The translations under genes and the position numbers were made by a program. From assembly GCA_030704615.1 (NCBI GenBank), contig CM060734.1:51770001-51834000 (forward strand): DNA of 64,000 bases, in the 5' to 3' direction. Shown piece by piece: positions 12,201 to 60,284 of this stretch. The notes beneath the pieces were generated by a model that saw only the letters and a list, made by a program, of their open reading frames with translations, made no database searches and was not told where the DNA came from. Within the stretch, counting starts at the first letter, position 1; each line of letters begins with the position of its first letter. Source of the stretch: Takakia lepidozioides (Eukaryota > Plantae > Bryophyta).

Positions 12201-12990
12201 ACGAAACAGGTACATAATTACAGCCACTGATTATACTACGAAGTGGGTGGAAGCTAAAGCTTTGAGGGACAACACAGCCAAGTCCACAGCAAGGTTCCTG
12301 TACGAGAACATACTTACACGATTTGGCTGTCCCTTAGAATTTATCAGTGATCAGGAAGTCACTTCATGAATGAGACCATTGAGTTGTTGACTAAAGAGTT
12401 CATGATTGTGCATAGAAAGAGTACAACATATTACCCACAGGGTAATGGGCAGGCAGAGGCTACCAACAAAATACTATGTACTATCTTGGCTAAGATAGTC
12501 AATGCAAACAGAACGGATTGGGATACAAAGCTGCTGACAGCTTTGTGGTCATACAGGACTTCATATAAAGTCACCACTAAGTATACACCATTCCAATTAG
12601 TTTATGGTATGGAAGCCTTACTTCCAGTGGAATTCCTGTTACCTACCATGAGAACGGAGTGGGGAAAAAGAATGGAATTGCAAGATTCCATTAAGGTCAG
12701 GAAACATGAATTATACCATGGAAGAAGTAGTACGTGCTGATGCAGCTGATAATATGACCAGAATTCAGATGAAGAGAAAGGAACAGTTTGATGAAGGCAA
12801 GTTAAAGACTTTTAAGACGGGGATTTGGTTCTATGGTTGCAGAAGAAAGGAAAGATTAAAGCTTCTAAGCTTAAATCACCATGGAAAAGGACCTTATGTC
12901 ATACAAAAGATGTATGATAACAACACCGCCATGTTACAAACCATTAACAAAGAAATGTGGGAAGAGTCAATGCCAATAAGTTGAAGGGGT
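9290..12990 (+). pseudogene. pol: Gypsy pol: aspartic protease, reverse transcriptase, RNase H, integrase (several frameshifts)
   Basis: PR VLIDGGSGVNI...LLLGRPWL; RT KKNGKLRVCVNY, MDGFSGYNQ, MPFGLCNAPATFQ, FLDDF; RH HCDAS; INT H..GGHF, CDECQR, WGLDFVGP, SDQ, GNGQAEATNK; GPY motif near 12890. Confidence 0.95.
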
Positions 12991-13119
12991 ACAGTGGTAT
13001 CCATGACAAACCTTGCAGCATGATTTGCATGTTGAACGCAGAGCAGTCACGGGCTGCAGTTACAACGGAGTATGGAGCACTTGTCGCTAGGCCAGCATAT
13101 ATGACCAGGGCGCCAAACA

Positions 13120-13360
13120 AGCGTGACACAGCCTATCACAGCCCATCAAGGAGCCTATCACAGCATCACACGTCACAGCCATCAACACAAGCCCCATCAC
13201 GACGTGACACAGCCTATCACAGCCCAGCACGGGCGACACAGCCTATCACAACCACCGCGTGTCACAGCCTATCACAGCTTACCACAGCATCACAGCCTAT
13301 CACAGCACAGTATGCCTATCTCAGTATGACACAGCCTCACAGCTCAACACAGCCTACTAG
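13120..13360 (+). repeat. CACAGCCTAT-type short tandem repeat between pol and extra ORF
   Basis: Repeated cacagcctat/cacagc units, related to the repeat at the LTR start. Confidence 0.75.
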
Positions 13361-14045
13361 GGTTACACGATCCATAGAATCAGTGACAGGTGGACAATAA
13401 CTTCAGGAAAAAATGGCTGACGGAAGAAAAAAACGGAAACTAGTTTAAAAATAGACACGTGGAGGTCAGGGGCGCGACACACAGCTGAGAAGGAAGTGCA
13501 AGACAGGTGTCATAAAGAAAGAGGACAAGAACGGCCGTCAAAAGGGATGAAAGGGGCCCATTAATGAATACGGAAAAGGGAAACGGAACGAACGGCAAGT
13601 ACAGAAAAGCGAAATTCTTGTCACATGTGTGATCCTAGTGGACTATCCAGCAGGGAAAGTCCACTAAAGAAAATAAAATCTAAAATCCAGTCACAGCGGA
13701 TACAGCCAATAGAAAACCAGAGAAAGGATCAAGAAAATGGAGGGAAATTGAGCGCAAGAGGCGGCGTCGTTCTGAGTAACGGGCGTCTCGACAGGACAGA
13801 CCATCAATGCTATACTTGGAAACTATGGAGGAACTAACAGACTATACGCTCGCAATATTACTTACGCAGCATAGACACGAAAGAACAGAGCGGAGCTTTT
13901 CTCTTGAGCGATGCTTGCAAGCCCCGCAGGCTTACAAGAAATTACCCATAGCTTTCTGTGGCAACCATACGTTTATGCTTTGTGCACTACAGGCATTTCT
14001 GCAGTTGTTACAGCCAAAACAGTTCTGTGAGTCTAAAATGAGAGA

Positions 14046-17000
14046 GTGAGAGGAATGGAGGAAATCAGGGTGAAGAGCACCACAATTCTGCAGAAACAAA
14101 CGATTGCTACCCCACAGGCGATACAGATACTGGAGGAGCTGAGATTGCAAGGATTGCAAAGCCTAGATTGGACACACCATAGACAGTACATGTTACAATT
14201 TTTGCAGAACTTTGAGCCAAGGACAGGAACAACAACGGTGAAGGGAGTTGAATTAATGATTACTCCCCTATACCTCCAGCAATTGTTTCGATTGCCAGCA
14301 GGTCAGGTGCATGTGGAGGAACACAGGGCAAGACTGCAAATAGGGGACTTATTCCAAGAAGGGAGTTTTCTTTAAAACTCAGGGTTATGCTTGTACCAAG
14401 GCTGTGTACCCAGGGCTAAAAGAGGTAGGCCAGGTATTGAACGTTCTGATTGCCATGAAACAGAACCAACAGTATTTGAGCAGATCCTTCACGGAGGAAA
14501 TACTCAAAGGCCTGAAGGGACAAGAGGTACAATGGGCGGACATAATGTACAACGCTGGTGGAGGAGATGAAAAGATTACAAGGTACTACGCAAAGTCTCC
14601 TATCATAGTGTCTGGCCCAATCATTGCTCAAATAATCTTGATTCTGGCATACTTGATGCGCAAGAAAGAAAGGAATGGGAGAGTGTTTGAGCCAGAAAAC
14701 ACTGCAATGGAAGAGCAAGGCTCTTCACACAGTGAGGGTGGACTAGCAGCAGGGCAACCCGAGACTAAGAGGCAGAGACGGGGAAAGACTGTAGTGGCGG
14801 ATCCACTGGCTTCACGGATTCCGCATGATAATAATTTCCCAAGCTCATGGCAGGAAGGGGCACAGCAGCACAGAGAAATGCTATTACTGGAAGCAGGACC
14901 TTTCTTGTTCACATCACAACCCACAGCCAGTGATCGACTTGCAAGGTCACAAGTTTCCATGCAGCTCAACCAGAAATAATTGATTTGGAAAGAGAAGGGT
15001 TAGATATTCCAACTACAGAACAGATAGTGGCAGAAATGGAGAAGGGGACCTCTCTATGAATATTCTGGTCTGGTCAAGGAGACAGAGATTCCAGAGGTGC
15101 AACAGTTGCCCAAGGGAAATCCTGAGGTGCATATAATACACACACCTGTGTCGGAGGTACCACAGGCGGAAGGTCATGACACTGTAGCACCGGTGATAGA
15201 TGAAGTGGTTCAGGAAGAAAAATCCGGTGGGACAATGGCCTGAGTGGTTCGTGAGACATCACACTGTTGAGGATCAGGAGGAACAGCAGCAACCTCACCA
15301 TGATGACCCTCAACAGGCAATGCTGATGAGTTCCATAGGCAGGACACTTAATTTGTTGGGGACTTATGTCAAATCCCATGTTCCAATTACCCAATTGACA
15401 GCCTTGAGAGAGGAACTCAGGAAGGAGTTTGAGGCTCGACTAGCCACTGAGTGTGCAAACAAGGTCGATGAAGAGGTCACTCTCAAGATGCAGCAGGACT
15501 TGGGAAATACAGAAAGCGGCTTTGCAATTGGCCAAGGAACAATTGATTGAGGCAGGCCTCGCGCAAGACCAGTTGCACGAAGCACATAAGCAACAGCTAT
15601 ACCAAATGCAGGTGCAGCATGAAAGCAAGTTGCAAGAAGTGAATGCACTACATACGGAGTTGCAGACAGTGCATGACAGGATGGCGATACAATGTGCTAC
15701 ATTCACAACTATGCTTGACCAATCTACAAAAGAAATAAACAGTCAAGCGGAAAAATGTACGAAGGCAGAAGAAGAGAATGTTGAGCAATGAAGCTCATTG
15801 TCGATATGAAGAATACAATCTGTCGCAATGAGATACTTTCAAGCAATACAGGCAGATTGAAGCTGATCAAGAGAAAGCACATCGTGGAGTTGCAACAAAC
15901 CATCATGGCCAATAGAAATGAAATCGCGGTCAATAACAAGGCTTGGAAGGAAGCCAATAATCTACTTGCTGCTATGCGAATTGGTTGAACCTCAGGCGAA
16001 GCGCATGGAGGCTTTACAACAGCAGTTAGAAGTGTACAAGCTAAGAGAGGAGCAAACTCTCAGGGGAACCACAAGCAACTTGGTGGATAACAGCCTTATG
16101 CAGGTCTGGTTAGCACAAGGGCCCAAGAGGGCAAAGCACCACGAAAGCTCACCCAAAGCGAGATGAATGAGCTCAGACTGCAGGTGCAGAACATTGCCAC
16201 AACTACTATAGACAATGTCTATAGTAGGATAGCAGAGTTACAAGAGGATGTAGACGGACTGCAGACTCAAGTGGAGGACCTCACTTCAAAACATCGACAA
16301 AAGAGTCTATATCCCTCAGGAACAGCTAATGGCTTCTTATTTACAAGCCAGAACTTTGGCTTTTCAGTCTTCACAGGAGGTGCAGGAGATGCCAATGATA
16401 CAAGAGCCAGTACCACCACCACAACAAGTCACTGTACCAGTAGCTGAACCTGTTGTTACTACAACCACACACAGCCACCACAGCCTGAGGTATGGGGCAA
16501 TGCTGCTTTTAACCCACCTAAAACTCCAGCTGCAAGGGAGTACAGTAGGGCTATGATTATGCCCTTCAACCAAATTCCCATCATGTTGGATTTGGCTTGG
16601 AAAGAATTAGTCCTCCGCAGTCATTCGCACATTACTACCAAATCATGCGTATCTGGCTGCCAGTGGCAACTAGGACTAAAGTTCTTCCGAACAATCGATA
16701 TTGAGGATCATCACTTTGCACATACTGGCACGAGGCAGCACGTACCATGTTGAGGGAATTAATTGCTTTCCAGGTTGTACATGGACTCATTTATACCAAG
16801 ACCAAGGAGGTAGCAAGTATTGTCATGGGATGCGGGTTATACTACGCTGCTTGTTTCTGGTACGTTATCACATTGAGCAACAAAAGATGCAAACACGCTT
16901 TCTGAGTTATTCCAGTGGAGATCATTGGGTATTACCTTCGGTGCCACCTCATATGTACCTATATGACCCAAAAGTTATGATGCAAAGGATTCTCAATTCG

Positions 17001-17400
17001 TTCATGGTTTCAAGCGGCCTGAACAATTTGTCAACACAGAAATTCGGCATTGATGATATTTTCTATAAGGGACATGTGGGGCATGGAAATACTTGCACGC
17101 TGCACCAGTAATTGGTACCCCCACTCACCTGGACAGACAAGGAGCTCAGTGTCTACACCAATTTTGTTGCTGTTCAGCGGTTACACCAAGTTGTAAAATA
17201 TAAACTTCCAGACATGGTAGGACAACATTGTATGCCCCAGAGGATTCCACAAAAAGTTCGAAAATTAAAACACCTGAGAGGCGATGAGGATTCTGATACA
17301 ACTGTTTCTTCACCAATTCTTTTGACATGGAGAAGACTATGCATTCAGATGGCAGAGAGAAGCGACGGGGGTCTCCTATGCCGGAAAGGTTACCTCGATA
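14046..17400 (+). pseudogene. Extra post-pol ORF region ('env-like'/accessory), coiled-coil rich, fragmented
   Basis: LQFLQNF..TTTVKGVELMITPLYLQQLFRLP resembles the N-terminal domain of accessory ORFs of non-chromovirus Gypsy elements; 15200-16300 are Q/E/L heptad-rich same-strand fragments. Confidence 0.6.
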
Positions 17401-17522
17401 TCAGCCTCCAGAGGGCCTCACTTATCCAGGTAGTTTATTCTCATAAAAAAACGAATGAAAAAAAAATCCCCCAAAAAAAAACATTTCGGGTCGGGGGAAA
17501 TTAAACATGGCGTGAGAAAAGT

Positions 17523-18379
17523 TGTAACACAGCCCGTCACAGTCGTGCACAACAGGCACAGCACACACACAACACAGCCGTCACAACACAACACAGCCAA
17601 CACAGCCCGTCACAGTCGTCACAGTCGTCACAGCAGACACAGCCGACACAGCCACACAGCCAGTCACAGCCCGACACAGCCAAACACAGTCGCACAGCCA
17701 GTCACAGCCCGTCACAGTTTCACACAGCCAGTCACAGCTTGACACAGCTGTCACGATCATAGGGAACGGAGAGCAGGACAGGGAACGACTGTGGGGAACA
17801 ACACCTGCGAAGGGAACATGTTAGTTCACAGACGACGGTTAGTGAGGGAAACGGTTAGAACCACGGTAGGAAGATAAAGGGAGAAGCGGGGAATTTTGAG
17901 GGACATCATTCGGAGGAGGACTTCTTGGTCATTGAGGAGAGGGGATGGGGCAGAGATGAAGAACGGAAGTGAAGATAGAGAGATGATGAGTAGATGCTTG
18001 ATATATGCAAGGCTGTAATGATATTGTAGAGCAGATTAGAGACACAATGGCTTCGGCCTGATACCTGATAAATCATAATCGGATACTTTTACGATACAAT
18101 CACACTGTGTAGAGAGATCTGAGTGAAGCTGTGGAATGAATGGATGAGTTGATGGAATCCAATAGATTGATAAAGCAAACTGATACTTAATTATCAATGG
18201 TAAGATAGCTAACATGAATACCAAAAGGGAAACAAATAGGAAACACCCCCATGATACACTAGCTGTAGGTCATGACTGATTGTTCTGCGCGGGCTGAGTA
18301 CTTAGAGATTTCCAACTCTTCTATCTTGGAGTTTCCGCCTCGAATAGCAAATGGATGGGTGAGTAAAAGCCGTGCGACA
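17523..18379 (+). repeat. 3' LTR of Gypsy element 1
   Basis: TGTAACACAG...GTGCGACA, matches the 5' LTR. Confidence 0.93.
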
Positions 18380-44050: not shown

Positions 44051-45053
44051 TGGAATGAAATCGAGACTGATCGAAAGTTGCGATTCACAACGGAATCCCC
44101 GAACTGATAGCCCGTAATTCTCGAAAGGGGATCCACCACAAACAAACTGAGGTCAATAAGGGTAGCACTGACCCAAAGACTGGGGGCGATACATGCAAAG
44201 GATGTAGGAATGACAAGCACCGAACTTCGCAGACAGCCACACTGAGAGACACCAACCAGAAAAACTAAGCCACAAGAAGTCGTGCTGTATTTGGATGAAA
44301 AACAAACCCTGAACATGACATGAAACCATCCATTATGGAAAGACAGCAACAACCCTGGAGAGCAGTAAACAGGAAGACCCCGAATCTAATGAGGTTGTAC
44401 TGTGCCAGAAGAGCACAGCACAAACACTGACACTCCGGGGACACACCTCGCACGAATGTGTGTAACACATGACCATTGCCGACACAACCCTTTATACCGA
44501 ATGACCCCATTGCGACGGTGACGGCGAAATGCAAACTGCAGGGTAGGCAGTGCAACACACGTGGATGCATATGTGAAGCATAACAATTATTGCGAATCTG
44601 CAAGTACTGCTCGAAATTGAACTAGCATTAGATTTCTACGACACTTCCGAATTTGAAAGAATGCAAGAAGGCTGCCATGTATTGGCAGGCGGCGAAGTAC
44701 ATCTGACATATATCACAAGTACATGCAACGGATGTACTTTTTATCTACCACTTTATTTCTTGGATAATACAAAGACGCCGAAATGGATGAATTCCGTTCG
44801 CACACAATGATAACAGCCGCATCCAAATACGGTTAACAATGTCAAATTTTTATTTTGGTTACATGCCATAGCAACCCTTGTTGCAAACGTCAAACTGGAG
44901 AGCTCTAGAGGCAGCGTGGGGAGCCCTTGTTTCCAGCAGAGGAGGAAGAGAAGGAAGTCGTTATACTTCACAAGCACTAGGGATAGTGTCGTGCGCATAC
45001 ATATCGCTACACAACTACATCGCTGTCCAAACCACACCACACATATATGCACA

Positions 45054-45398
45054 ATAAGAAAGCTAAGGACACTGTTGACACAAAACATATGAAATGCATC
45101 GCTATCACTCTTTATAATAGAAGTCGAGCCAGGGGCACCCCAAGCTATGGGGACTCCACCCCACAACAACCTACACTCCCATCATGAGTACACTCAGATC
45201 TAAACGCATGCAGGAGCTCGGTCGCGCAGGCTCAACTCGAGAGAGATGAACTGCGCGACTGCCGCTCTCGTGAAGATAAGACGGACCAGGTGTCAAACTA
45301 AACTTGACACCTGATTTAACACTTGACCTAAATCCAAGTTAAAATACAAATAACTAGTTTTATGCTAGCTGTTTCACACTGTGCTTATTAACTTGACA
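45054..45398 (-). repeat. Long repeat A2 (copy of the 5' terminal repeat)
   Basis: First ~285 bp appear identical to 56785 onward; a few differences in the remaining ~60 bp. Confidence 0.95.
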
Positions 45399-45400
45399 GC

Positions 45401-45475
45401 TGTCGTGCGCATACATACGCTATATCGCTAACAACTACATCGCTGTCCAAACCACCACACATGTATGCACAATAA
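45401..45475 (-). repeat. Short repeat B1 (second copy B2 forms the element end at 44987-45057)
   Basis: tgtcgtgcgcatac...caactacatcgctgtccaaacca...gcacaataa present twice, flanking A2. Confidence 0.92.
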
Positions 45476-45490
45476 AGTAGTCTACCACAA

Positions 45491-45500
45491 TCGCCCCCCT
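45491..45500 (-). promoter_or_regulatory. Polypurine-tract-like site (AGGGGGGCGA)
   Basis: Purine run on the coding strand, just before a TG and the 3' repeat block. Confidence 0.55.
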
Positions 45501-45749
45501 AGCTGGTGGATAGGTCCCTCTACCTCCAGATAGCTACAAGACGTAATAGCCATAGCCGTACTAAGTCCTCTATCACTGTCCCTATCGTACTCAAACTCAT
45601 AGACCAAGAGCCGGGTACAAGAGTAGCCCATCGTTAGTCGCCGTCTTGCAATCTGTGAACTTGAGCCAGGACTTCGTGTATTCAAGGTCTCCTGTAGCTG
45701 GGCCTTGCGTTCTTATTAGCCTCCCATGGTTGTATCCACTCCCACTATC

Positions 45750-47210
45750 CAATGCTTGTGGACATAACCAATCCCCATCTGGAACCATCTCAAGAGGTGG
45801 AGTCAAGCACCCCATATGCCAACCTCTAGAGCATCGATCACACACCAGCATGGTGGCTGCCCCTTTAGCAGACCCACACAACATGCACCTCAAACCGGCA
45901 GATACCACTGCCAGGTTTGGGTCAATCCTGCCATCGACATTCGGAAGGTGACATGGCGCACAATTACGCACATGGTCCTTCCAAGTTATGCCATCCCGAC
46001 CCTCCAAGACCAAGACGCCCTGAGGGCAAGACCTCTCGAACCCTCAAAATAACACGTCCTGCAGTCACATCCAGGGTCGTAGAGCAATCTGCTGCAGATA
46101 GACATAGTCACCAGGGTTGAATCTCCGAACCTCAGGACGATAGCCCCACCACGTATGGTAGCATACCTCAACGTATCACGGTGTTGTGCAATGGCAAGGT
46201 TCTCGAAAGCCATGGGCATGACTCTCTTGAACACTCTGCACGCTGCTCACATGCACGTGCCCACCCGTCCGGATCGTCAAGGTTAAGAACTGTAGCAGCT
46301 TCTTCTCTGCGAATGGATGTAGGCAAATCCGGCTCTCGGCCAAAGAGAAGAAAGTATGGTGAGAAGGAGGCAAGTGATGCTGCTTGCTGAACCTGTAGCC
46401 CATGGCTAACCAGGGTAACTGAAGGTCCCAATCTCCTAGGTGTCCATTCTGCAAGCCATACTTGCGCAAACCCCTCTTTACTGTCTGAACAACTCTCTCT
46501 GCCAAGCCATCGGCTTCAGGATGATCCCGAGAAAGTGGTGCGGTGGTCTATCAAGGGCCTTGTCACACAAAGCCTGAAACTCCCCCAAGAACTCTCCCTT
46601 GGTCCGTGAGTACCTCAGCTGGAGCACCGAATCGGCTAAGCACACAATCCAAGAATGCATACGCAGCTCCCTCACTAGCCTTATCAGGCAATGGAACCAA
46701 TTCAATCCACTTGGAGAAGTGCTCCACCATCACCAACACGTACTTGTTGTGGCGCATGGTCAGTGGCAACGGCCCTGCGAAGTCAAGACTCCACCTGTAG
46801 CCCAATCCCATGATCGGAAGAGGGTGCAATTGTGGAGTAGGGGCGTTGAATGAAGCACGCACCCTGTCACACACCATGCACCTAGCCACAAATTGTTGCA
46901 CCTCTGTGTGCATACCACGCCACCAATACTGCCCCTGCAGTAGACTATGAGTGCGTCGCACCCCAAAATGCCCCAACTCCTCATGGGCATGCCGCACTAA
47001 ACCGTGCCCGCTGTGTTGGGTGAGGCACAATCCTCACTCGCCCATCCTCCCATACTCGAAGCAGGTGTGTCCCCTCCCACCTGAACCTCTTGGCTCGTTG
47101 TAGGATCCGATCCCTCTCCTTGGCAGTCATAGTGGGCTGTCGTGTCCCACTGCGGAGGTAGTCCAACACAAACTGAATCCTCATGTATATCTTTGGCGCC
47201 ACCCTGCTCA
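45750..47210 (-). CDS. Integrase (HHCC + DDE) with C-terminal PHD finger; frameshifted in this assembly
   Basis: HEELGHFG..CMVC; WSLDFAGP; TDQG; AERVVQ; PHD CMLC..MLVCDRC..WHMGCL.PPL..VPDGDWLCP (~45755-45887). Confidence 0.92.
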
Positions 47211-47392
47211 TTGCTGGCCTCAGGGTCCTCAGACACTTGATCTACAGTCATCCCTGTTGTAGGTCCAACCTGGCCTTCCGCTGCCAGATACACAGAAATG
47301 CAGATGCATGCCATCCGGGCACCATCTCCTCTCCGTCTCACCATGCCACCGAGCTCCAGTGTCATCCTGCTGGCTCGTGCATGGATTGCGAC

Positions 47393-48718
47393 TCAACCCA
47401 TCTGCATTTCGATTGACCAAACCCGGTCGATGCACCACCTGAAAGTCATACTCTTGAAGGATGAGTGCCCACCGTGCAAGCTTCCCCGAAGCTTGTCTGA
47501 CTCATCAACCACTTGAGTGGGTTGGTGATCCGTGACAAGGGTGAAGAGATTGCCGTATAGATAGCACCTGAAGTGTGCCACGGCCCACACTGCAGCTAAG
47601 CATTCTCCCTCATATGAGCTATACTTAGACTCTGCAGCATTGTTCGAGCGGCTAGCATAAGCCACTACGAACTCTCTTCCCTCATCATCCACCTGTGTGA
47701 GCACCGCTCCAAGCCCCAGCATGCTCCAATCTGTATGCAGCTGAAAAGGACGCCCCCTGATAGGTCGTCTCAAGATGGGCGCCGAGGTCAACCTCGCCTT
47801 GAGCTCTTGAAAAGCTTGTTCTTGCTCATCTTCCCACTGCCACTCCTGGTCCACCTTGGTCAGCTTGGTTAGAGCCTTTGCAATGGCACTAAATCCCTTA
47901 ACAAACCGTCTGTAATAGTTTGCTAACCCCATGAAAGCTCGAACTCGGCTCACATCCGTGGGGCGTGGAACCTGTGCAATGGACTCTACCTTAGTCTGCT
48001 GTACCCCCAATCCTCCAGGATATATCATGTGACCCAGATACTCAATCTGGTTGTGGAAAAACTTGCACTTGCCCGGATGTAACTTCAATCCGTGCGTCCT
48101 CAAGCGCTCAAATACCCCCTGAAGGTGTCTCTCATGCTCCTCCACCGTAGCACTAAAGATGATGATGTCATCTATGTAGCACCGAGCAAACTCCACCCCT
48201 GCTAGAATCCTGTCCATGACTCTTTGAAACTCAGCGGGAGCGTTTTTAAGCCCAAATGGTAAGAACCGCCACTGGTATAGGCAATCCTTCCCGTGCTCAT
48301 TGATCCCCCAGAATGCCGTCTTTTGCTTATCCGCCTCCTTGATCGGCAACTGGTGATATCCGGATCGTAAATCCAACGTGCTAAAGACCTTGGAATGCCC
48401 AATGGCATCAAAGATCTCCTCTGGTGTTGGCATGGCATACCTATCGGACTTGGTCTGACGATTTACAGGCCGGTAATCACCGCACATACGTCTCTCCGTC
48501 CAATTGCCATAGACATCCTTCTTAGCTGGCATCACTGTGGCTGAAGCATACTCTCCACCAGAGAGCTCCACCAAACCTGCCTCCCAGAGATCTTGAGTCC
48601 TCATCTGAATCAAAGACCTCTCCATGTCACTGTATCTATAGGGTCTCCGAAAGATTGGCGTGTCAGTGGCCAACTCAATACGGATCTCTTGACCCTTCAG
48701 TGCTCCCAAGTCCTTCAA
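47393..48718 (-). CDS. Gypsy reverse transcriptase-RNase H
   Basis: RMCGDYRPVN, LDLRSGYHQ, LPFGLKNAPAEFQ, YIDD, YLGH, RH HTDWS..E..TDH. Confidence 0.97.
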   Translation of the reverse strand: MKDLGALKGQEIRIELATDTPIFRRPYRYSDMERSLIQMRTQDLWEAGLVELSGGEYASATVMPAKKDVYGNWTERRMCGDYRPVNRQTKSDRYAMPTPEEIFDAIGHSKVFSTLDLRSGYHQLPIKEADKQKTAFWGINEHGKDCLYQWRFLPFGLKNAPAEFQRVMDRILAGVEFARCYIDDIIIFSATVEEHERHLQGVFERLRTHGLKLHPGKCKFFHNQIEYLGHMIYPGGLGVQQTKVESIAQVPRPTDVSRVRAFMGLANYYRRFVKGFSAIAKALTKLTKVDQEWQWEDEQEQAFQELKARLTSAPILRRPIRGRPFQLHTDWSMLGLGAVLTQVDDEGREFVVAYASRSNNAAESKYSSYEGECLAAVWAVAHFRCYLYGNLFTLVTDHQPTQVVDESDKLRGSLHGGHSSFKSMTFRWCIDRVWSIEMQMG

Positions 48719-49169
48719 ACTGAAGGCAAAGCAATTCCTATAAGCCCTCAGGAACCGCCGTATACGTCGTCTCTCTCCTCCGGTGACAATGGGTCCAATG
48801 TCAGGCTCCCAATTGTCCTCCGTAACTGCAACCTTAAGTCCAGTGGGCTTAGAGGTAGAGGACGCGTCCCGTGGTTGCTATGCTGCAACCTCTTGAGCAG
48901 TACCCCCTTCCTGCTCAGTCAATGACAAGGCCTCATCCTGCCCCATCATCTCATCATTGAGAACCTCCTCATCCCGAGAAGAATCCCCAACCTCATCCAT
49001 CACAGCTGCCTTCGCTGCCAACTCCCTCTGAACCTCGAGCACCTCCCACGTGTGCCATGGATGTCTACACCTCGTGGTCCTCACCGGCTCGCCCCCACTC
49101 GCTGCCTGTACCGTCTCGGTAGGCAGAGAGACCGTCAAGGGAAGTGCACTCCGCACTCTACGTTGCTCA

Positions 49170-50125
49170 GCCATAGCCAAGCTGACAATCCAGGTCAAGC
49201 AATTGAGATCCATTGCTTGCCCCAACACCTGACGACGTGATGCCTCAGAAAGAGAAGGCACCGCCGTGGTCCCAGTGGAAAACCCCATAGCCCGCTCTCG
49301 CTCGTCGGCATTAGGCTCCACTAACTGCTGCAACTGAGCATCCCACAGGAGGCCAGGTCCACCATCCCGAAAAGCATGGGATCCTGGGAAGCTGAGCAGT
49401 GTAGGTAATGCTGCTCGTGGTTGACCCACCCTGTTGACCACTGCCAAAGGCGAACGGTCATCGTGTCTCACACGTTGAGACTGCCTTCCTGTGTCCAAAA
49501 TGCCATCCACGTTGAGGTGTGCTGGCCGCTGCACCCCATCAAATGCACGCTTGAGCAGTGCGGGTGGCATCAAGTTAGTCCACCATAGTCGTGGACGATG
49601 AGCCCGTGACCCCACTGCAGCTGCATCCAGCAACACTGCTGACCCAAGCCACGACCGGACTTGATGCACACTGGCCATCACCCTGGCCCGAGAATCACCC
49701 ATCAGTGGTACATTCTCCAAGATGTATGCTGGAGATACAGCTTGATGAAGCTGCAAGCAGCGCAAAATCCGCACCATCTCCCAAAACAGACCCGTCCTCG
49801 AGTCTCGCAATCCATTGCCATGCCCGGCTGATGAATGCCCTTGGCAGGGCCAACCTGCCACTATCAGATCAATGGAGCCAACCTGCTCCAAATCTTGCGC
49901 CCCCAACAAGGAAATGTCTGCTGGCAAGGCTTGTTGGTATCCACGAACTGCAGACACAGGCAACAAGTCAGGGTACTGCTGTACCAACTGAGCACATGGC
50001 GCAGTGAGACGCGTCGTGCAGTCTCATCCCTCTCCACATACAGGTAACGCCTTACCCGCACACCTGCCTGTAGCACAGCAGCCAATCCGGTGCTGATCCC
50101 GCCAAACAAGTCCAGAAGGCAAATG
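49170..50125 (-). CDS. DNA (cytosine-5) methyltransferase domain, DNMT3-like, embedded in pol
   Basis: Ordered C5-MTase motifs: I LDLFGG, II YVERD, IV AGWPCQ (catalytic PC), VI ILENV, VIII AHRPRLWWTNL, IX ERERAMGF, X LGQAM. One 1-bp frameshift near 49992. Confidence 0.93.
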
Positions 50126-50485
50126 CCTTCATCCGGCCGCTGCCACACAAGAGGTGTGGTGTCCAATGGCGACAACTGAGGTGGCCCTGGTGCAATCACC
50201 GCACTCTCCTCCTCTCCTGACGGTACAAAAGCTTCTCCCAAGCTTGTTGCACCCGTCCATCAGCAGCTTGCTGCAAATCCTTGCTCGTACCCCACAACGG
50301 AGTGTGAGCAACCATGGCAGGCAACTCCGCCGTACCATGCATGTCATCCTGCTCTGCTGGAGGTGGCACATCCTCTGCATGGGCATTGCCTTCCAGCAAC
50401 TCTCCAGGCCAACTAACGGCAGCTGTGAAGGCGGCTAGTGTTGGCATCTTGCCCCGCTGGGCAGTTGCAATACCCCCAATGAATG

Positions 50486-53077
50486 TCACAGGAGCTGTGC
50501 ACGGCGACCATCCCCTGACTGCCATCCAGGCCTGTAGGATGCTGACTCCTCCCAGAAATCCAGGGTGAAGCCCATGGGGTATAACACTGCCCCACCAACG
50601 AGGACATCGTAAGAGACCGCGTCTGTCACAATGGCCTTGGCTCGCATCACTGAGCCATCTACAGGATGATCCGGCTGCAGTCTAATAGCCAACTGATGCC
50701 GTGTCATGCCGCGAGCCTGCTCTGATCCTCCCAGAGATGTCTGTATCTGGAAAGGACAAGGCTCCATATCCGCCTCCATGAGGCCCAAACCTGCAATAGC
50801 AGCTCTGCCCAACATCAGTGGCTGAGCTCCTGAGTCCAACAAGACCCGCAGTGGCCGGTACTTCTTGCCTGCCGGTCCACTCAAAGTGAAAATGCCTCCC
50901 TGGTTGTCTAACAAGACAACTCCAGGTGTCACCGTGGCGCGCTCAAAGGCTGGCCTAGCTGGCAGCTCCGTCAATCTGGCAGCTGCAACTTGCCATGGCG
51001 CAGCCGTGGCAGTCTTGACCCTCAAATCCGAGGATCCCTCTGCCACTATACCTTCCACTAACTCCGCAGAAGATGAAGTGACCTCCCCACTCTCACAGAG
51101 AGTTGCTGCTAGTCTGAACACTGCAGCTGGTCTCACCCCCGGCGTCGCAATCATGGTTGCCGAGAACAGTGGGGCTTGACACACAGAGGTGGCTGCCCCC
51201 AATAACACACCGGCTGCACTAGCCTTGGTAGCAGGTGTCAATGCTGCACGTGTAGCTCTCCCCAATGGCATAGTAACCTCCGCCTCGGTAACAGTCGGGC
51301 GAGAACTAGGTGCCATGGATGGCGTTGACACTGTCTCCGCCAAGGTGAATGACTGAGGCAGCCTCGCCTGACGGCTTGCCTCCCCACGTTGTGGATCCAA
51401 CTCCACCTCTGCACCTCGTGGCTCAGGAACTCGTGCTGCTCCTCGAGTCACGGCTGCAGCAGACTCCACCTGCTCTAGTGGTAGTGCTGCTCCGCACATG
51501 AATCCCATGCCTCCCATATCTCCTCCCTCAGGAGCAGGAGGTGGACCATCCCGCCTGGGAGCCGGTACCGCCTGAGCTATAGCCATGGCAGCGAGCCTCT
51601 GCTCTAGCTGCTGAAGCCGATTGGCCATGCCTTGGTCAACACCCTGACCTCCGCGTCCTTGGCCATGTGGAGCTTGCCCTTGGCCTGCACCTCGTGCCCG
51701 ACCACCTCGTCCTCTTTGGGCTGGTCCACCTCGCCCCCGGCCACCATTGTTCCCTTGGAACTGGCCTGGGCGCAACTCAGGATGCAAGTCATAACACTGG
51801 GCATCTACATGCCCATACTTGCCACAATGCCCACACTGCAACTGTGCAGGCTGTGCTTGTGCCGGCCTTCTGCCATTCTCTGGGCAATCTCTTTTGACAT
51901 GGGGTCCTCCACATGTCCAACATATCACCCCTGGTTGCTGTTGGCCTGCAAAAGATGCCACGGGCCTCTGCACCTGAGGTCCCCTGTAAGCTCCATGGAA
52001 CTTGGGCTGGGCAACCTTGCCCCCCTGACCACGCTGTTGGGCAGTCCCTTGTGCCTGTGGGTTGACAGTTGTGCCCCGTGCAGGCATGTCCTTGCCAAAT
52101 CCAATTGTAACAACTCGCTCCTCCACCATGTTGAGCTCAATCCGCTCAGCCAGCAGAAACACATCTGCTAATGTGGGTTGGGCTGCTTGTAACAGGGTTG
52201 CATCTCGCACCCTTCTCTTGAGCTCCTTGTCCAGAATTCCATACCAAAACTGGATTGCCTGAGCTTCAGTAACCCCTTGGGTCACACTTATCAAGCGCCT
52301 CATACGAGTGTACGCCTCTCGCAGGCTCTCACTGGGTTTGCGCTGGAAGTCTTGCAAACTTCGCAGCTTCTCTGTCCGTACACCTTGGTAGTTCCTCCGC
52401 AACTCCTGGAAGAACTCCACCACCGGGTTGAATCTAGGCACATGTGTTGTAGTCGTGGCAGGAGGAGTAGTAGCACCTTTTGAACTGGTACCACCTGCAG
52501 AAGTACCAGCACTACTTGCTCCACTACTAGTGCTGGCAGTGGGAGCTATTGGTACTGATGCAGCTACTGGTCGCGTCGTGCCTCGAGTAATGGAGACGTA
52601 GTCAGGTGACCAATACATCCTCCACTCCTCAATCTCTGCTTCATGTCCTCGCCTGAACTCGTGGTAATCGTCCATAGGCGGGCCTTCCAAATGCTGGAAC
52701 AGTCCCTTCCACGCCATGAATGGGGTGAATAGCTGTGGATTGCGCATCTGCTGCAAATCACACCAGCTGTCAAACTCCTGGATAAAGTCATCCAACTCGA
52801 TTGTGCCCACAGCTCCAGAGTACCTACGAGGCCCCTTGGTAGCTCCATACATCTCCTCCATGTCGTCCCACAACAATGGCGAATGAAAGTGCACACCTGT
52901 TGATGAAGCCTCCGAGTCTGTGTCTGACTCTACAGTAATTGAGGGTGGCGGTGAAGGTGGTCTGAACCGAATACCTCGTCTTGTGAACCCACTCTCACTG
53001 TTACTGCCTGTAGCCGTACTCCCCTCAAAACCCTTGGGTAACTCCGTAATGACACTCACAATGTGCACCTCCTCCAC
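50486..53077 (-). CDS. gag: gag-protease polyprotein
   Basis: 863-aa open frame: capsid-like region (LQDFQRKPSESLREAY), knuckles CWTCGGPHVKRDC and CGHCGKYGHVDAQC, RGG tract, protease LLDSGA...DVLVG. Confidence 0.92.
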   Translation of the reverse strand: MEEVHIVSVITELPKGFEGSTATGSNSESGFTRRGIRFRPPSPPPSITVESDTDSEASSTGVHFHSPLLWDDMEEMYGATKGPRRYSGAVGTIELDDFIQEFDSWCDLQQMRNPQLFTPFMAWKGLFQHLEGPPMDDYHEFRRGHEAEIEEWRMYWSPDYVSITRGTTRPVAASVPIAPTASTSSGASSAGTSAGGTSSKGATTPPATTTTHVPRFNPVVEFFQELRRNYQGVRTEKLRSLQDFQRKPSESLREAYTRMRRLISVTQGVTEAQAIQFWYGILDKELKRRVRDATLLQAAQPTLADVFLLAERIELNMVEERVVTIGFGKDMPARGTTVNPQAQGTAQQRGQGGKVAQPKFHGAYRGPQVQRPVASFAGQQQPGVICWTCGGPHVKRDCPENGRRPAQAQPAQLQCGHCGKYGHVDAQCYDLHPELRPGQFQGNNGGRGRGGPAQRGRGGRARGAGQGQAPHGQGRGGQGVDQGMANRLQQLEQRLAAMAIAQAVPAPRRDGPPPAPEGGDMGGMGFMCGAALPLEQVESAAAVTRGAARVPEPRGAEVELDPQRGEASRQARLPQSFTLAETVSTPSMAPSSRPTVTEAEVTMPLGRATRAALTPATKASAAGVLLGAATSVCQAPLFSATMIATPGVRPAAVFRLAATLCESGEVTSSSAELVEGIVAEGSSDLRVKTATAAPWQVAAARLTELPARPAFERATVTPGVVLLDNQGGIFTLSGPAGKKYRPLRVLLDSGAQPLMLGRAAIAGLGLMEADMEPCPFQIQTSLGGSEQARGMTRHQLAIRLQPDHPVDGSVMRAKAIVTDAVSYDVLVGGAVLYPMGFTLDFWEESASYRPGWQSGDGRRAQLL

Positions 53078-53590
53078 GTGACACTATAAGGCTCTAGTAC
53101 TAATCTAATAGTGACACGGGTGGGCACCTGTTGCAGTCTAAGGGTCATATCCCAATGGCTCAGGGCACCTGCATCCACCGCAAGAACTCCTATGGTTGGC
53201 TGGTCATCAACCCAGCCTCACCATAGAAGAAACACTGGTGGTCTTGCTGGTCATCACTCCAGCCTCACCACCGACAGCATACTCTAGGATTGACCGGTGA
53301 TCAAATCCGGCCTAATCCCTATGAAAGCAAGCGCCCACACAAAACCAACATGGCGCACAGTCAAGCATGCAGGTGTTGGGGGGGATCCAAACACAAGAAA
53401 TCAAAACATCAACACCCCCACACCAAAATCCAGCTGCAATGCTGATCCTGCAGAATATCCCAGCCCAAAACCCCGGACTGACTGGCCTCCACCAAGAGAG
53501 GCTTTGGCAACTACAAGTACAAGGTAATGAAAATAGTACAGAGATGGAGGGGAAGAATAGAAGCCCGCCCAAGCAAGATCTAATCCTGAT

Positions 53591-54340
53591 CTATGCTATC
53601 AACTTCCAGACTTCTCTCAAAGTGCCTCGCTCTGCTTGATGGTAAGGTGTAGGAGGTATATCTATGTCCAGAAACCTGCCACTAACCTTGTCCCAAGCTA
53701 CAGTAGCTCGCTCTAACCAACCCTCCTCCTCTTTCTGCCAGGTAGAGACAAAGCAACACTCTGCTATCTCCCGCTCACTGAACACTAAAGAAAACAAAGG
53801 TAGGGTCTGATAGTCTCTCAACTCGAAAGCTTTGAGACGGTTGCGGGTGTCTTCATTGCGAATGACTGCATCGCCTTCAAACAGAACAAACTTGTCCTCG
53901 CTAATGAACCCCCGCTCGTGGTTGCCTTGTGCAGAGCGTGTCCGACTGCAACACTGTCTAATTGCACAAACTTGTGCAGCTCCTGCTCCTCTGCTCCAGT
54001 ACACCACGGCCTTGTGGCTGAACACCTTGGTCCCCGAGGCTGTCTTTGGCTGTGTTCCAAGCCTAGCTTTCACCCACTTTGGTATTTCACCTACAGCTGC
54101 AGAACTGCTGGCTCCAACAGAGTTCTGACTGTTCAAGGCGATATTGAGGCCCTCAATGCCAACTACAGCAGTCTGTTGTCTACTGCTAATGCCTGACTCC
54201 CAGTATGCAATCAACTCGTCCAACTGTTCTCCACTCAAATCAGTCTGAGTTCCTTGGGAAACATAAATCGTGTCCCCTTGTGTGCACAGACTAAGAGAAG
54301 AGACCTGCCCTTCAATTACGTCCTCATTTCCCCCAGCCAT
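53591..54340 (-). CDS. Unknown 249-aa ORF upstream of gag, inside the element
   Basis: ATG-initiated, uninterrupted, same strand as gag; no recognised motif. Confidence 0.45.
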   Translation of the reverse strand: MAGGNEDVIEGQVSSLSLCTQGDTIYVSQGTQTDLSGEQLDELIAYWESGISSRQQTAVVGIEGLNIALNSQNSVGASSSAAVGEIPKWVKARLGTQPKTASGTKVFSHKAVVYWSRGAGAAQVCAIRQCCSRTRSAQGNHERGFISEDKFVLFEGDAVIRNEDTRNRLKAFELRDYQTLPLFSLVFSEREIAECCFVSTWQKEEEGWLERATVAWDKVSGRFLDIDIPPTPYHQAERGTLREVWKLIA

Positions 54341-55041
54341 GCATGGAGTACATCCACCAATTTGTCTCTCATATGGACCAGCACAGGTTCTAGAGACAGG
54401 ATTGTGGATCTTTCATGGCACACTCACACTCTAAAAATTCCATAGATTTTTAGCAGAGTCCCCAAAACAGAAACCAGGTTTAGATAGGTAGATTTCCCCT
54501 TTCTGTAGCTATCCCCCCAAAAACTGGGTCAAACAGAGTCCATTTGACAAAGATATGATGAATTTGGCTCCAAATCATTCAAATTAAATTAAAAAGGGGG
54601 GTTTTTTTTTTTTTCTTAAAGGTTTTCAAGTTTTAAAAATTCAAAGTTACACTCAAAATATCTGGTAACTGGTTCCCGGTTCCCTAAGTTCTATATGGCA
54701 TCCTAGGTTCCCTGACCACGTGACTGTTGTTCCCCTCCATTTCATTTGAGTTCAACAGCTCACCATGCTTTGGAATCCCAACCGTCTTCTACCACAAACC
54801 GTGGTGACGATGGAGTTCGTGAAGCGATCCTTCCCAGTGAACCCTCGAGAGACGAGTCCCATGTGCACTTGATATACACTCTCTTAATAGAGATCAAAAT
54901 CAGCAAGGAGACACCATTGACGACACCCAGAGATCAGAGACAAGTACTTGCGCAGTTCGGAGGCCACAGCATCCCCTCTGGACACTGAGCGGGGAATAGC
55001 TGCTACACAGCAGCTCAGTCTATCGTCAGCTCCTATACCTA

Positions 55042-55494
55042 CTAGCTTCCTGCCCCTGCCATAATCAAAGAGACAAGTGACACAACACCAGCTGGAAACA
55101 CCTTTCCTGAATTTTTGTATCGAGAGCCCATCACAAACAAGAGAAGCCTTGAAACAGCAACACCGATAGAGGACGCAAGGACAGGGTTCGAGGGCAGGTT
55201 CAGATAGACATAATAGAGGATCAGAGCTGACCCTCCCCCTGACAGCAATGACTTGCTGCTCCCAGATTTTGCAAATCCGATCACTCCTCCCAGACCAACA
55301 AGGACTGCATACGCCAAGGTCAGCTTCTGCGACATAGACAGCTTCATCTTTCCGTCACCACTTCCCTCTTCCTGTCCTCCCTCACCACCGTTCCCGTTGC
55401 CTCCATTGCCCGACACTTGGGTTACATGCTCAGCCAGACCTTCAAAAAAACCTGGCCCAAAATTCACTGGCTGCTCGGACACTGGCATGACCAA
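55042..55494 (-). pseudogene. Captured TMEM14/FATTY ACID EXPORT (plastid FAX2-like) sequence with divergent C-terminal end
   Basis: Gly-rich linker then LSMSQKLTLAYAVLVGLGGVIGFAKSGSSKSLL..GSRY..SGKVFPAGVVSLVS, typical of the plant FAX/Tmemb_14 domain; no introns. Confidence 0.85.
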
Positions 55495-55973
55495 ACCTCT
55501 TTAACTCCAATCAGCCTGCTGCTGAGTTACGATCTCATCACCAAGCAAAATCTATCCCAATGCCCAGTTGAGCTGCCAGTCTCGCATTCACTTTCCCCAC
55601 CAAGGCAGCTGCAGTACACTGACTGTCTTAGCTCCCTCCATGACAACCTCCCGCATTTGGGCAAGTTCAGCTTCACGGACCTCCCAGCGACTTAGCAGCT
55701 GCTTCAGGTCATGGTCCTAGCTAGCGCATGCTGGGCTGCAACCAGTTGCAGATCCTTATCGTGTAGAAACCCCTTCACTGCTCTCTTTCCATCTCCTGAC
55801 GCCATGCTCCATCCTCCAGCCACTTCACTTGTTTCAGGCACCCAGGTCCCTATGGGCAGGTCACATGCTCCGGCAACAGGAGTGCTCTCAAGCGGACATT
55901 GAGCGCCCTCCACTGACTCAGTTGAGTGTGCAAACCTTTCTGCTCATGCAGTTCCAGCAGTCAATACTCACTC

Positions 55974-56465
55974 CTAGTGATGATGATGTTCATGCCCTAG
56001 AAGACCACCCTCTCCTATCACCTTCAACTGAAAGACTTGGCTGCAGTCTGAGCATTCATACTGTTTGTCCTTCTCCAGCTTGAACCATGTCACATCATGC
56101 TCATCCTCACCAACACCTCCTGAGCACCCAACTATCCGCTCATCATAGTGTGACTCCACAATTGCAGGGGCATCCTTGGTTCCAAAGGGACCACGAGGCG
56201 GATCCAGATCAAAGCGCTTCCCACCCGAGCGCTCCGCTTCCAACTCCTCCAGCTCAACTCCTGTTGCAATTCCAAAATCGCCCGAGCTGCCTCCTGCACT
56301 TGCCAAATCACGACTACGATGCAGCCACCGCGCATATGAGAGACCCCGATGTTCTGATTGCTCCGCTTGCGGTTGCGGGTTACACAGCAATGTCGGTGGA
56401 GGCACACATGGTACACGCCTGGATGCAACCAACCGTGAGAGCCTGCATCCAGCCGTCCTCAACAT
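55974..56465 (-). CDS. COX5B: Captured intronless cytochrome c oxidase subunit 5b copy
   Basis: IATG.E.EELEA, GPFGTKDAPAIVESHYDERIVGC.GG.GEDEHDV.WF.LEK..ECSDCSQ.F.L, His-rich end; Arg-rich presequence-like N-terminus from ATG 56465; single open frame. Confidence 0.92.
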   Translation of the reverse strand: MLRTAGCRLSRLVASRRVPCVPPPTLLCNPQPQAEQSEHRGLSYARWLHRSRDLASAGGSSGDFGIATGVELEELEAERSGGKRFDLDPPRGPFGTKDAPAIVESHYDERIVGCSGGVGEDEHDVTWFKLEKDKQYECSDCSQVFQLKVIGEGGLLGHEHHHH

Positions 56466-56782
56466 AGCGCCCCACTCCCTCTGGGCCTTGCCATCACACC
56501 ACCAGCTGCCATCGACATATCCTCCGCAGACGGCGACGCCCTTACAGTGGAAGCACACCTCGCCAATGCCAACAGAAATATGGGCAGACCACCATTACTC
56601 TCTCTTCTACCACACCATTGCGACTGGAGATGTGAGACGAACTCAAGCTAGAGCCGTTCTATGCTCCTTGCTTGAGCTGCGTACAAGACCATGACCATCT
56701 ATATTATAATAGTGCTTAAAAAAACAAAAACATCATATCTAGCTTAGCACTGGAAAACTAGATAGTGCTCATCTCTCTCGAG

Positions 56783-57132
56783 TGATAAGAAAGCTAAGGA
56801 CACTGTTGACACAAAACATATGAAATGCATCGCTATCACTCTTTATAATAGAAGTCGAGCCAGGGGCACCCCAAGCTATGGGGACTCCACCCCACAACAA
56901 CCTACACTCCCATCATGAGTACACTCAGATCTAAACGCATGCAGGAGCTCGGTCGCGCAGGCTCAACTCGAGAGAGATGAACTGCGCGACTGCCGCTCTC
57001 GTGAAGATAAGACGGACCAGGTGTCAAACTAAACTTGACACCTGATTTAACACTTGACCTAAATCCAAGTGTTAAATACAAATAACAAGTTTTATGCTAG
57101 CTGTTTTCACACTGTGCTTATTTAACTTGACA
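56783..57132 (-). repeat. 5' terminal repeat A1 (TG...CA on the coding strand)
   Basis: Coding strand reads TGTCAAG...CTTATCA; copy of 45054-45398. Confidence 0.95.
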
Positions 57133-57489
57133 ATAGGAATAGAGCCAGATATAGAATGAGGATGGAAAGAGTAGATGAAGAGGTAAAGGAGGAAGAAGAG
57201 GGCAAAGAGGAAAGTCTGGTGATGGAAGAGCAGGATTCTGGAGAAGAACAGCAGCCCGCCATACTTCCAAGAACTAGTGAGGAGGAGACTGCATCCGAGG
57301 GAGAGACGGACGCCGAAGATGATGTTGATGTTGGCCTCACAAAGAAGCAGATAGTGGGAAAGAGGATGGGGGAGATGCTCCAGAACATGCTCGGCGTAGA
57401 GAGCAGTCCGAAGCGCAAAGGATCTCCGGCGATTGGGAAGTCTTCTGGAGCACCCAAGAAAAAGGTACAAGTGATGGCCAAACCTACTT

Positions 57490-60170
57490 GGAAGCTCAAA
57501 CAGAGTGTGGCAACGCACACTGTTTGAGACCCACATTTGTGCTTCATTTTTTATGTCAAAATCGGCCACTTTGGGCCTCTCTGTCTGGTTCAATTCACCA
57601 CAGACTGGAATGTCAATCAGTGTGCGACAACGCACACAGTTTCAGACCCCACTTGTGCTTGTTTTTTTTATATGAAAATTGCCTACACATGGCATCTCTC
57701 TCTGGTTCAATCGACCCGTATTAAGAAGCACAAACAGTGTGCGCCAACGCCGGCCGCTTGAGCCCCAACTTTGTGCTTGTTTTTTTATACCCAAATCGGC
57801 CCCAAAACGGGCATGTCTGTCTGGTTCAATCCTCCACTATTTGGAAGCTCAAACAGTGTGCGGCAACGCACACTGTTTGAGCCCCCACTTGACATTATGT
57901 TCTCATGTTAAAATCGGCCACAAAGGGCATCTCTGTCAGGTTCAATCCAAACTTACCTGGCAGCTCAAACAGTGTGCGTCAACGCACACTGTTTTAGCCC
58001 CCCTTTTGCCTTGGTTTTTGGTGTGGAAATCGTGCACACAGGGCCACTCAGGCAAGTTGAATCCACACTTACCTGGAAGCTCAAACAGTGTGCGTCAACG
58101 TACACTGTTTGAGCCCCCCTTCTCATTGTTTGTTTCATGTCCAAATCTGCAATCTTAGGGCATTTGTTCTGAGGTTCAACCACAATTACCTGGCAGCTCA
58201 AACAGTGTGCGTCAACGCACACTATTTGAGCCCCCCATCTCGTTGTGTAATTCATGTAAAATCGACCACAAATGGCATTTTGGACAGGCTGAATCCACAC
58301 TTAAGTGGGAGCTCAAACAGTGTGTGTCAACGCACACTGTTTGAGCCCCCTTCTTTTTGTTTGTTTCATGTTAAAATCGGCCACATAGGGCATGTCTTTT
58401 GAGGTACAACCACAATTAGCTGGCAGCTCAAACAGTGTGCATCAACGCACACTGTTTGAGCCCCCCTTCTCATTGTGTGTTTCAAGTTAAAATCGGCCAA
58501 ATAGGGCATCTCTTTTGAGGTTCAACCACAATATCCTCGCAGCTCAAACAGTGTGGGTCAACGCACACTGTTTGAGCCCCCCTTCTCGTTGTTTAATTCA
58601 TGTAAAGGTCGGCCACATATGCCATCTCTGACAGACTGAATCCACATTTAAGTGGCAGCTCAAACAGTGTGCGTCAACGCACACTGTTTGAGCCCCCCTT
58701 TGCCTTGTTTTTTGGTGTGGAAATCTTGCACAAAGGGCCACTCTGCCATGTTCAATCCACCCTTTATTGTGCGGGAACGCAAACTATTTCGTGCACACAG
58801 GGGCCTCTCTGTAAGGTTCATTCCACCACTATTGGGAAGCTCAAACTGTGTGCCCCCTTCAGTGCCTGTTTTTTTATTTGAAAATCGGCCACTCATAGCT
58901 ATGATAAGTTCAAATCACCCCTTATTGGAAGCTCAGACAGTGTGCATTGACGCACACTGTTTGAGCATCCTTTTTTGCTTGTTTTTTTCATGTGAAAATC
59001 GTGCATACAGGGGCCTCTATGTAAGGTTCATTCCACACCTCTTTGGAAGCTCAAACAGTGTGCGGCAACGCACACTGTTTGAACCCCCATTTTGCCCTGC
59101 TTTTTGCCTTGTTTTTCTTGTTCAAAACAGCCACAAATGGCATCTCTGTCAGGCTCAATCCACACTTACGTGGCAGCTCAAACAGTGTGCGTTGACGCAC
59201 ACTGTTTGAGCCCCCCCTTGTCATTGTTTTTTTCATGTGAAAATCGTGTGCACAAGGGCCTCTCTGTAATGTTCATTCCACCCCTATTTGGAAGCTCAAA
59301 CAGTGTGCGGCATCGCACACTGTTTGAGACCTCATTTTGCCTTGTTTATTGCCTTGTTTTTCTTGTTCAAAACGGCCACAAATGGCCTCTCTGTCAGGCT
59401 CAATCCACACTTACGTGGCAGCTCAAACAGTGTGCGTTGACGCACACTGTTTGAGCCCCCCTTGTCATTGTTTTTTTCATGTGAAAATCTTGCACACAAG
59501 GGCCTCTCTGTAATGTTCATTCCACCCCTATTTGGAAGCTCAAACAGTGTGCGACAATGCACACTGTTTGAGCCCCCATTTTCCCTTGTTTTTCTTTTTC
59601 ATAACGGCCAGAAATGGCATCTCTGTCAGGTTCAATCCACATTTACGTGGCAGCTGAAACAGTGTGCATTGACGCACATTGTTTGAGCCCCCCTTGTCAT
59701 TGTTTTCTCATTTGGGAATCGTGCACACAGGGGCCACTGTTTGTGCCCCCTTCACTGCCTGTTTTTTGATTTAAAAATCGTCAGAATAGGGCCACTATGC
59801 CATGTTCAAACCACCCCTTGGAAACTCAAATGTTTTGGGCCCCATCTCTGTTTGTTTTTTTAATGTGAAATTGGGCGAAACACGGCCAGTATGGATGCTC
59901 AAAACACCCATAGTTGGAAGAACGAACAGTGTGTGGCCCCCTCTCTGCATGTTTTTTTATGTGGAAATGTGTCACATAGGGCCTAATGTCATGTTGAAAA
60001 CACCTCTATTTGGAAGCTCAAGCAGTGTGCGGCAACGCACACTGTCTGTTCCCCACTCTCTGCCTGATTTTAGATTTGAAAATAGACCACTCATGGCCAG
60101 TGTGCCATGTTCAAATCACCCATTATTGGAAGCTCAAACAGTGTACGGCAACGCACACTGTTTTTGGCCC
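57490..60170. repeat. Tandem array (~115-125 bp period, ~20 full units plus partials) with 36-bp palindrome GCTCAAACAGTGTGCG-NNNN-CGCACACTGTTTGAGC
   Basis: Cores at ~57494, 57611, 57728, 57847, 57963, 58079, 58196, 58311, 58426, 58542, 58657, 58931, 59049, 59176, 59294, 59421, 59538, 59653, 60016, 60132. Confidence 0.97.
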
Positions 60171-60284
60171 GCACAATGCTTGTTTTCTCATGTGAAATGG
60201 GCCAAATCGGGCCTACCTGCCATGCTCTAAACACCATCTGTTCTTGCATCTCTCATATATCAGTTTGAATGAACAACCGTGTAG

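Follow-up and report, generated by a model that had tools for sequence, protein, structure and literature searches.

A conserved internal copy of both element ends, probably cut by the DDE integrase, in a Ty3/Gypsy lineage with split direct repeats

LTR retroelements follow a textbook rule, by which integration proceeds from processed linear ends. Cleavage of a junction of joined ends is reported, in the accessible portions of two papers, only as a side activity of the HIV-1 and foamy-virus integrases, which cut palindromic 2-LTR junctions to CA-3' ends (PMC4372172; PMC1905944). Split direct repeats are assigned, in the accessible parts of three accounts, to tyrosine-recombinase elements only (PMC6681497; PMC4157794; PMC13465315). 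The lineage described here and its repeat layout are already known from one figure legend of 2018, in which KnitGypsy-Dnmt3 from Klebsormidium nitens is given a DIRS-like repeat arrangement with Gypsy domains (legend of Fig. 4c in de Mendoza et al, 2018; PMC5890265, partial text). Like our element, KnitGypsy-Dnmt3 carries a Dnmt3-like domain in a Gypsy Pol and, compared by the figure legend alone, combines A-ORFs-B-A-B repeats with Gypsy domains; the accessible text gives no junction, target-site duplication (TSD), PBS/PPT, single form or mechanism. A search of openly accessible article text found no account of this junction, of the sites that prime the element, of a ragged joint or a single form, or of the mechanism presented below. 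The junction is real and conserved, and probably reflects a new mechanistic variant of Ty3/Gypsy integration.

The window, a stretch of 64,000 nucleotides from Takakia lepidozioides, carries on its minus strand a 12.1-kb Ty3/Gypsy element (44987–57132) with TG...CA termini. Self-comparison of the window gave the sense-order layout A1-ORFs-B1-GC-A2-B2. The A repeat of 348 bp at 45054–45398 (A2) recurs with 98.6% identity at 56785–57132, within A1 (56783–57132), and about 75 bp of the B repeat at 45401–45475, within B1 (45401–45491), recur at 44987–45057 (86% with gaps) as a 5'-truncated B2 that supplies the 3' CA end. TGTCGTGCG begins at 44987 and AACTTGACA finishes at 57132; these are the true element termini, flanked by a 4-bp ATAG duplication (44983–44986 on the left, 57133–57136 on the right).

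Public contigs back these borders. Contig depth, which is not taken as copy number, rises about 20-fold at 44988, and unrelated flanks precede 44987 in 58 contigs of run X2 and four of X5. Host-repeat contigs from three studies run from the left to the right flank without the element (four in X2, three in X5 and three in X6), and in study X6 a contig also spans the internal junction. X1, X2 and X4 represent one sample, which may be the window's own source, and X5 and X6 belong to other studies; copies from the same genome are viewed through short contigs only. Together, the heterogeneous flanks, the empty-site contigs and the X6 read-through show that neither the element nor its junction is an assembly artefact, and the public contigs identify the element family as high-copy. 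The insertion target is itself another multi-copy repeat (44500–44986 and 57133–57460), with uninterrupted copies in three studies. Beyond the target, units of about 117 bp that each contain a 36-bp palindrome are repeated in tandem over 57478–60190. The window also holds a second, conventional Gypsy element (5532–18379) with LTRs of about 860 bp (94%) and a tRNA-type PBS; its LTR contains a similar CAGCTGTC palindrome in a short tandem repeat, with the end GCGACA, which may be chance.

The coding region, also on the minus strand, has the Gypsy domain order gag-PR-RT-RH-IN. It comprises a gag/protease ORF (50486–53083; weak PF03732 match), a frameshifted Dnmt3-like C5 methyltransferase domain (48878–50259; PF00145, E=2e-13, with supporting motifs), for which DNMT3A is closest among solved structures in the PDB, reverse transcriptase and RNase H (47393–48877; Pfam), a DDE integrase with HHCC and rve domains that is frameshifted in this copy (46176–47033; Pfam) and a PHD finger at the integrase C-terminus (45756–45887; PF00628, E=4e-11). 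The copy is frameshifted at several places. D,D(35)E spacing of the integrase was found in 10 of 11 intact homologues checked, and the tyrosine recombinase domain PF00589 was absent both from 12 ORF pieces searched with Pfam and from the precomputed domains of 103 homologues. Towards the 5' end lie a captured intronless COX5B piece (56004–56303; PF01215, E=8e-20), an intronless TMEM14-family piece (55057–55320; PF03647, E=1e-17) and, before gag, a 273-aa ORF (53591–54412) with neither a Pfam match nor a match in the best 80 of 493 related loci. Compared with the repeats, contig depth is much lower over the captured pieces (55057–56303), and the contigs diverge past about 56700; the capture is therefore specific to this copy or subfamily.

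Further features support the assignment to Gypsy: the PBS and the polypurine tract (PPT) adjoin a repeated unit, the former after A1 and the latter before B1, and TG...CA ends with a 4-bp TSD were seen in 12 of 14 copies with both ends visible (best 80 of 493 loci). What is missing is a pair of complete direct LTRs at the termini, since none of the 24 visible 5' ends among the best 80 of 493 loci begins with B upstream of A1 (L039 and L040 left out).

The internal junction, CACGACA-GC-TGTCA, joins B1 to A2 (45394–45407, minus strand). The sequence-only reading had described an internal copy of the joined element ends, and such a copy is indeed present: AACTTGACA (45390–45398) and TGTCGTGCG (45401–45409) match the true termini and enclose GC at 45399–45400, with the palindrome GACAGCTGTC at 45395–45404. 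The 14-mer motif occurs once in the window against 0.04 occurrences expected. The palindrome by itself was rejected as evidence, as the window contains 50 perfect 10-mer palindromes; the weight of the junction comes instead from its joining the 348-bp A repeat to the roughly 75-bp B repeat of the two ends.

Conservation across copies, on which the sequence-only reading had staked its claim, was borne out in one metagenome scan of short-read assemblies. From the best 80 of 493 confirmed loci, 17 duplicates of the same insertion were removed, leaving 63 independent loci. Seventeen of these are double forms with B-A-B after the integrase (A-ORFs-B-A-B; one stops inside A2), and 20 are single forms, in which B alone is followed by host DNA (A-ORFs-B); the remainder are 22 loci that stop short of the 3' repeats, L057, which stops inside B, L062 and L071, in which B is cut short, and L003, which stands apart. 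Including the window, 19 copies among this best 80 of 493 carry a junction (the 17 doubles and L003 being the others), and in 18 of them a 2-nt spacer separates the halves (CACGACA-NN-TGTCA), L070 being the sole disrupted case. The spacer reads GC in 10 copies, AC in three, AT in three and GT in two (same best 80 of 493); all departures from GC are C>T or G>A changes, as would be expected from decay of methylated CAG/CTG. The motif is common to lineages with only about 45–50% RT identity that lie far apart in the RT tree. TSDs of variable sequence are located at the start of A and the end of B of integrated copies. In the 14 copies with both ends (best 80 of 493 loci), nine TSDs are exact over 4 bp and three have one transition mismatch; L016 and L044 have none. 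In L044, GC precedes A1 and the flanks resemble an imperfect 8-bp duplication (4117–4125 and 13190–13197), possibly an aberrant integration.

These data also bear on a reading of the locus as a one-off rearrangement, an autointegration product or a mis-assembly of an ordinary LTR element, or as the work of a tyrosine recombinase acting in trans, as in Ngaro and PAT. The window copy does differ from the read contigs by many small indels, and in other cases split direct repeats have been described from elements with a tyrosine recombinase. Against this stand the 17 independent double-form loci in other genomes (best 80 of 493), a high copy number, with flanks that differ beyond one shared terminus, and the TG...CA ends, variable 4-bp TSDs and DDE integrase, and we regard this group of explanations as barely credible. 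Its one-off part is refuted by the heterogeneous-flank contigs, the double-form loci and the TSD survey (best 80 of 493 loci).

Some loci show individual peculiarities. L003 (8550–9317) has B-GT-A followed by its own PBS and leader, like a one-LTR circle, with collapsed assembly an equally likely explanation. In L039 and L040 (3671–3961), A1 lies in the opposite orientation to the coding region. Within L006–L067, seven of eight older copies have A repeats (A1/A2) that are less alike than their B repeats (B1/B2), perhaps because of base composition.

The position of the junction within the element follows from its priming sites. A G-rich PPT lies directly before B1 (45492–45500) and adjoins B1 in all three subfamilies. 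The PBS directly follows A1 (56769–56782), and a tRNA-primed reading was rejected because it lacks the TGG start and its complement sits in A. In the window, this complement is exact over 15 nt (56966–56980) and marks a putative self-primer; it occurs at A position 153–184 and reaches up to 17 nt in relatives, is weak (8–10 of 13) in many decayed copies, and has its best match elsewhere in a few. Complementarity suggests that the transcript also starts there, and the predicted RNA fold of the region has z=−4.5. Each of the three subfamilies has its own self-primer and PBS sequence, so the two covary. With a PPT before B1 and a self-priming PBS after A1, the real LTR is B+GC+A, in which B1 represents the 5' part of U3, and A1 the 3' part of U3, R and U5. 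The junction is therefore inside U3, and standard reverse transcription from these sites gives a BA-ORFs-BA cDNA with the junction in the U3 of both LTRs. In the distant subfamily, the ends defined by PPT and PBS read AT...AT, without TG...CA.

Since PPT and PBS set the ends made by reverse transcription, copying the junction alone produces no ends there, and we infer a cut. The motif is thus probably a conserved internal copy of both ends that is cut by the DDE integrase, whose putative attachment site would have moved from the LTR edges to the U3 palindrome. The sequence-only reading had made the junction the template that regenerates both ends during strand transfer; its role as the source of both ends of new copies is upheld, but the ends of reverse transcription are placed elsewhere by PPT and PBS.

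A cycle can be proposed on this basis. The RNA would span from the self-primer in A1 to A2, and ordinary two-jump reverse transcription would copy the junction into both LTRs. At one junction, the integrase would then nick both strands at CA^GC; the two resulting CA-3'OH ends, each with a 5' overhang of 2 nt, would have the form of 3'-processed retroviral ends. An unprocessed retroviral circle junction has 2+2 nt, as against the 2-nt spacer of the element. The spacer had also been likened to the dinucleotide trimmed by integrases; staggered nicks after each CA would instead leave each end carrying it as a 5' overhang. If the 5'-LTR junction is cut, the PBS-side and PPT-side ends would be joined by end-joining or a reverse transcriptase jump, either before integration, in a 2-LTR circle, or after it, during gap repair. 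Only the product of this route, A-ORFs-B-A-B, would have R at each end of its RNA. Cutting of a one-LTR circular intermediate, or gap repair by annealing of B1 and B2, would yield the dead-end form A-ORFs-B.

The forms recovered bear on the choice of junction. Among the best 80 of 493 loci, the mirror form A-B-A-ORFs-B was found in no case, compared with 10 canonical copies (P=0.001). Plain symmetric cleavage of a 2-LTR circle, which predicts the mirror as often as the canonical form, is ruled out by this result. The imbalance leads us to add a timing assumption to the integrase-cut model, namely that the integrase uses whichever junction is double-stranded first: the 5' junction would reach this state once the minus strand has been extended by a few hundred bases, the 3' junction only after about 10 kb of plus strand.

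The origin of the single forms can be explained differently while the cutting stays the same: all insertions might be A-ORFs-B-A-B, with singles arising later by chromosomal recombination between B1 and B2 or by assembly collapse. B1 and B2, as direct repeats, lie about 300 bp from each other, such an event would preserve the TSD, which is kept in four of six singles with both ends (best 80 of 493 loci), and the loci come from short-read metagenome assemblies, in which L003 looks collapsed. However, the B repeats are only 115–176 bp long and 85–96% alike, and singles are as common as doubles (20 and 17 in the best 80 of 493) and not detectably older, with no age difference found by stop-codon load (P=0.41) or CHG decay (P=0.28). 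Both forms are interspersed in both subfamilies of a quick RT tree. We consider this alternative, which would alter only the single-form step of the mechanism, to be quite unlikely.

The second joint, A2|B2, has a different character. In the window copy (45054–45057), about 21 nt are lost at a 4-nt microhomology between the RT-defined ends. Among the 17 copies examined (best 80 of 493 loci), the joint in the subfamily near the window is one shared A in four of four, a form seen complete in 19 X2 contigs, with two other variants in X4. The distant subfamily (same best 80 of 493) is ragged, with five blunt joints, two with one added nucleotide, two with a 2-nt overlap, one with an 18-nt filler, one with about 147 nt of B deleted, and one that extends through the PPT into 137 nt of preceding sequence. 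Such raggedness resembles the pattern of end-joined 2-LTR circle junctions described in the accessible text of two reports (PMC4372172; PMC12786077). The resemblance to a circle junction that had been proposed for B1|A2 thus belongs rather to this variable joint. In 15 copies from the best 80 of 493 loci, B2 is closer to its own B1 than to the B2 of other copies (P=0.002); the own B1 is closer than any other B2 in nine of the 15, and the coupling is lost in older ones. Fixed differences between B1 and B2 were not found. Private variants shared by B2 with its own B1, together with the lack of fixed differences, indicate that B2 is remade from B1.

The joints also help to weigh a reading in which the junction is a template only: extra strand transfers during reverse transcription would give a linear cDNA, GC-TG...CA-GC, from which the integrase trims GC at each 3' end. 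The palindromic GC means that both ends would lose the same dinucleotide, and the absence of the mirror form (0 against 10; best 80 of 493 loci) is explained more directly than by cutting. The uniform joint in the subfamily nearest the window (four of four) likewise fits templating and counts against the cut model, although an inherited joint would match too. What speaks against templating is that two reverse transcription stops would be needed at an internal site with neither a primer nor a template end, with PPT and PBS about 90–180 and 290–350 nt away from the junction. Moreover, joints that contain filler, large deletions or 137 nt from before the PPT imply that the PPT/PBS ends are made first and then joined imprecisely. 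We therefore hold the template-only explanation to be unlikely and retain cutting by the integrase as the preferred one.

Homologues with the same domain set were found in Marchantia, Closterium, Klebsormidium, green algae and metagenomes, and form one RT clade with 100% support in a quick tree; a scan of viral contigs found nothing. The nearest named relatives of the window element are Marchantia proteins, with 81% identity over 340 RT columns, and the methyltransferase-bearing Pol proteins P0005 and P0006 of the clade are annotated in Marchantia, a liverwort and thus a land plant, which the accessible main text of the 2018 paper does not mention (PMC5890265). Among the 59 rows of this 100% clade in the quick tree is P0095 of K. 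nitens, a long-branched protein that may or may not represent the published element.

Whether this green-plant lineage of DDE retrotransposons is old and has abandoned integration from free cDNA ends, with an obligate cut inside the LTR and host end-joining in each cycle, is in our judgement evenly balanced; such a cycle would be the retro-equivalent of IS3/IS30 junction transposition. With junction cleavage as its apparent sole route, this abundant natural family offers a direct handle on whether circular or end-joined intermediates can be genuine precursors of integration. If the obligate cut is real, split direct repeats would be no more than LTRs in permuted order; this would account for their having arisen repeatedly in PAT, Ngaro and VIPER, and would offer a step on the way from Gypsy elements to retrotransposons with a tyrosine recombinase. 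On this reading, Ngaro and PAT should also show a PBS, a PPT and an A2|B2 joint that is ragged. In addition, the family carries a methyltransferase in an apparent land-plant host and picks up pieces of host mRNA. As it lacks terminal direct repeats, LTR-finding programs are expected to miss or mis-bound its members in bryophyte and algal genomes.

PAT, TOC, Ngaro, VIPER and SymbioDIRS-Dnmt3 share the A1-ORFs-B1-A2-B2 layout with its internal copy of the joined ends, so that the analogy to split-repeat elements drawn by the sequence-only reading is sound, but the window element differs from all five in having a DDE integrase in place of a tyrosine recombinase, TG...CA ends, a 4-bp TSD, a Gypsy RT, a PPT and a PBS. 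The putative self-priming of the window element resembles that of Tf1 and Tcn1. Tf1/sushi and Tcn1 have a PBS complementary to their own LTR (PMC6317226, accessible text), as the window element appears to have by sequence. They contain terminal LTRs and chromodomains, whereas the window element has no terminal direct repeats and bears a PHD finger at the integrase C-terminus; its RT clade is separate from the chromovirus-like plant rows included in the quick tree. The HIV-1 and foamy-virus integrases cut a palindromic junction to integrable CA-3' ends (PMC4372172; PMC1905944; partial text), in their case as a side route on ligated cDNA ends, whereas in the window element a fixed, inherited U3 palindrome would be the only route. 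The minicircles of IS3, IS30, IS21 and IS256 provide the remaining parallel, as a DDE enzyme cleaves abutted ends across a short spacer, which measures 1–2 bp in IS2 (PMC3299598, partial text). The IS spacer, however, is host DNA captured afresh through the action of the transposase, while that of the window element is a conserved GC copied by reverse transcription.
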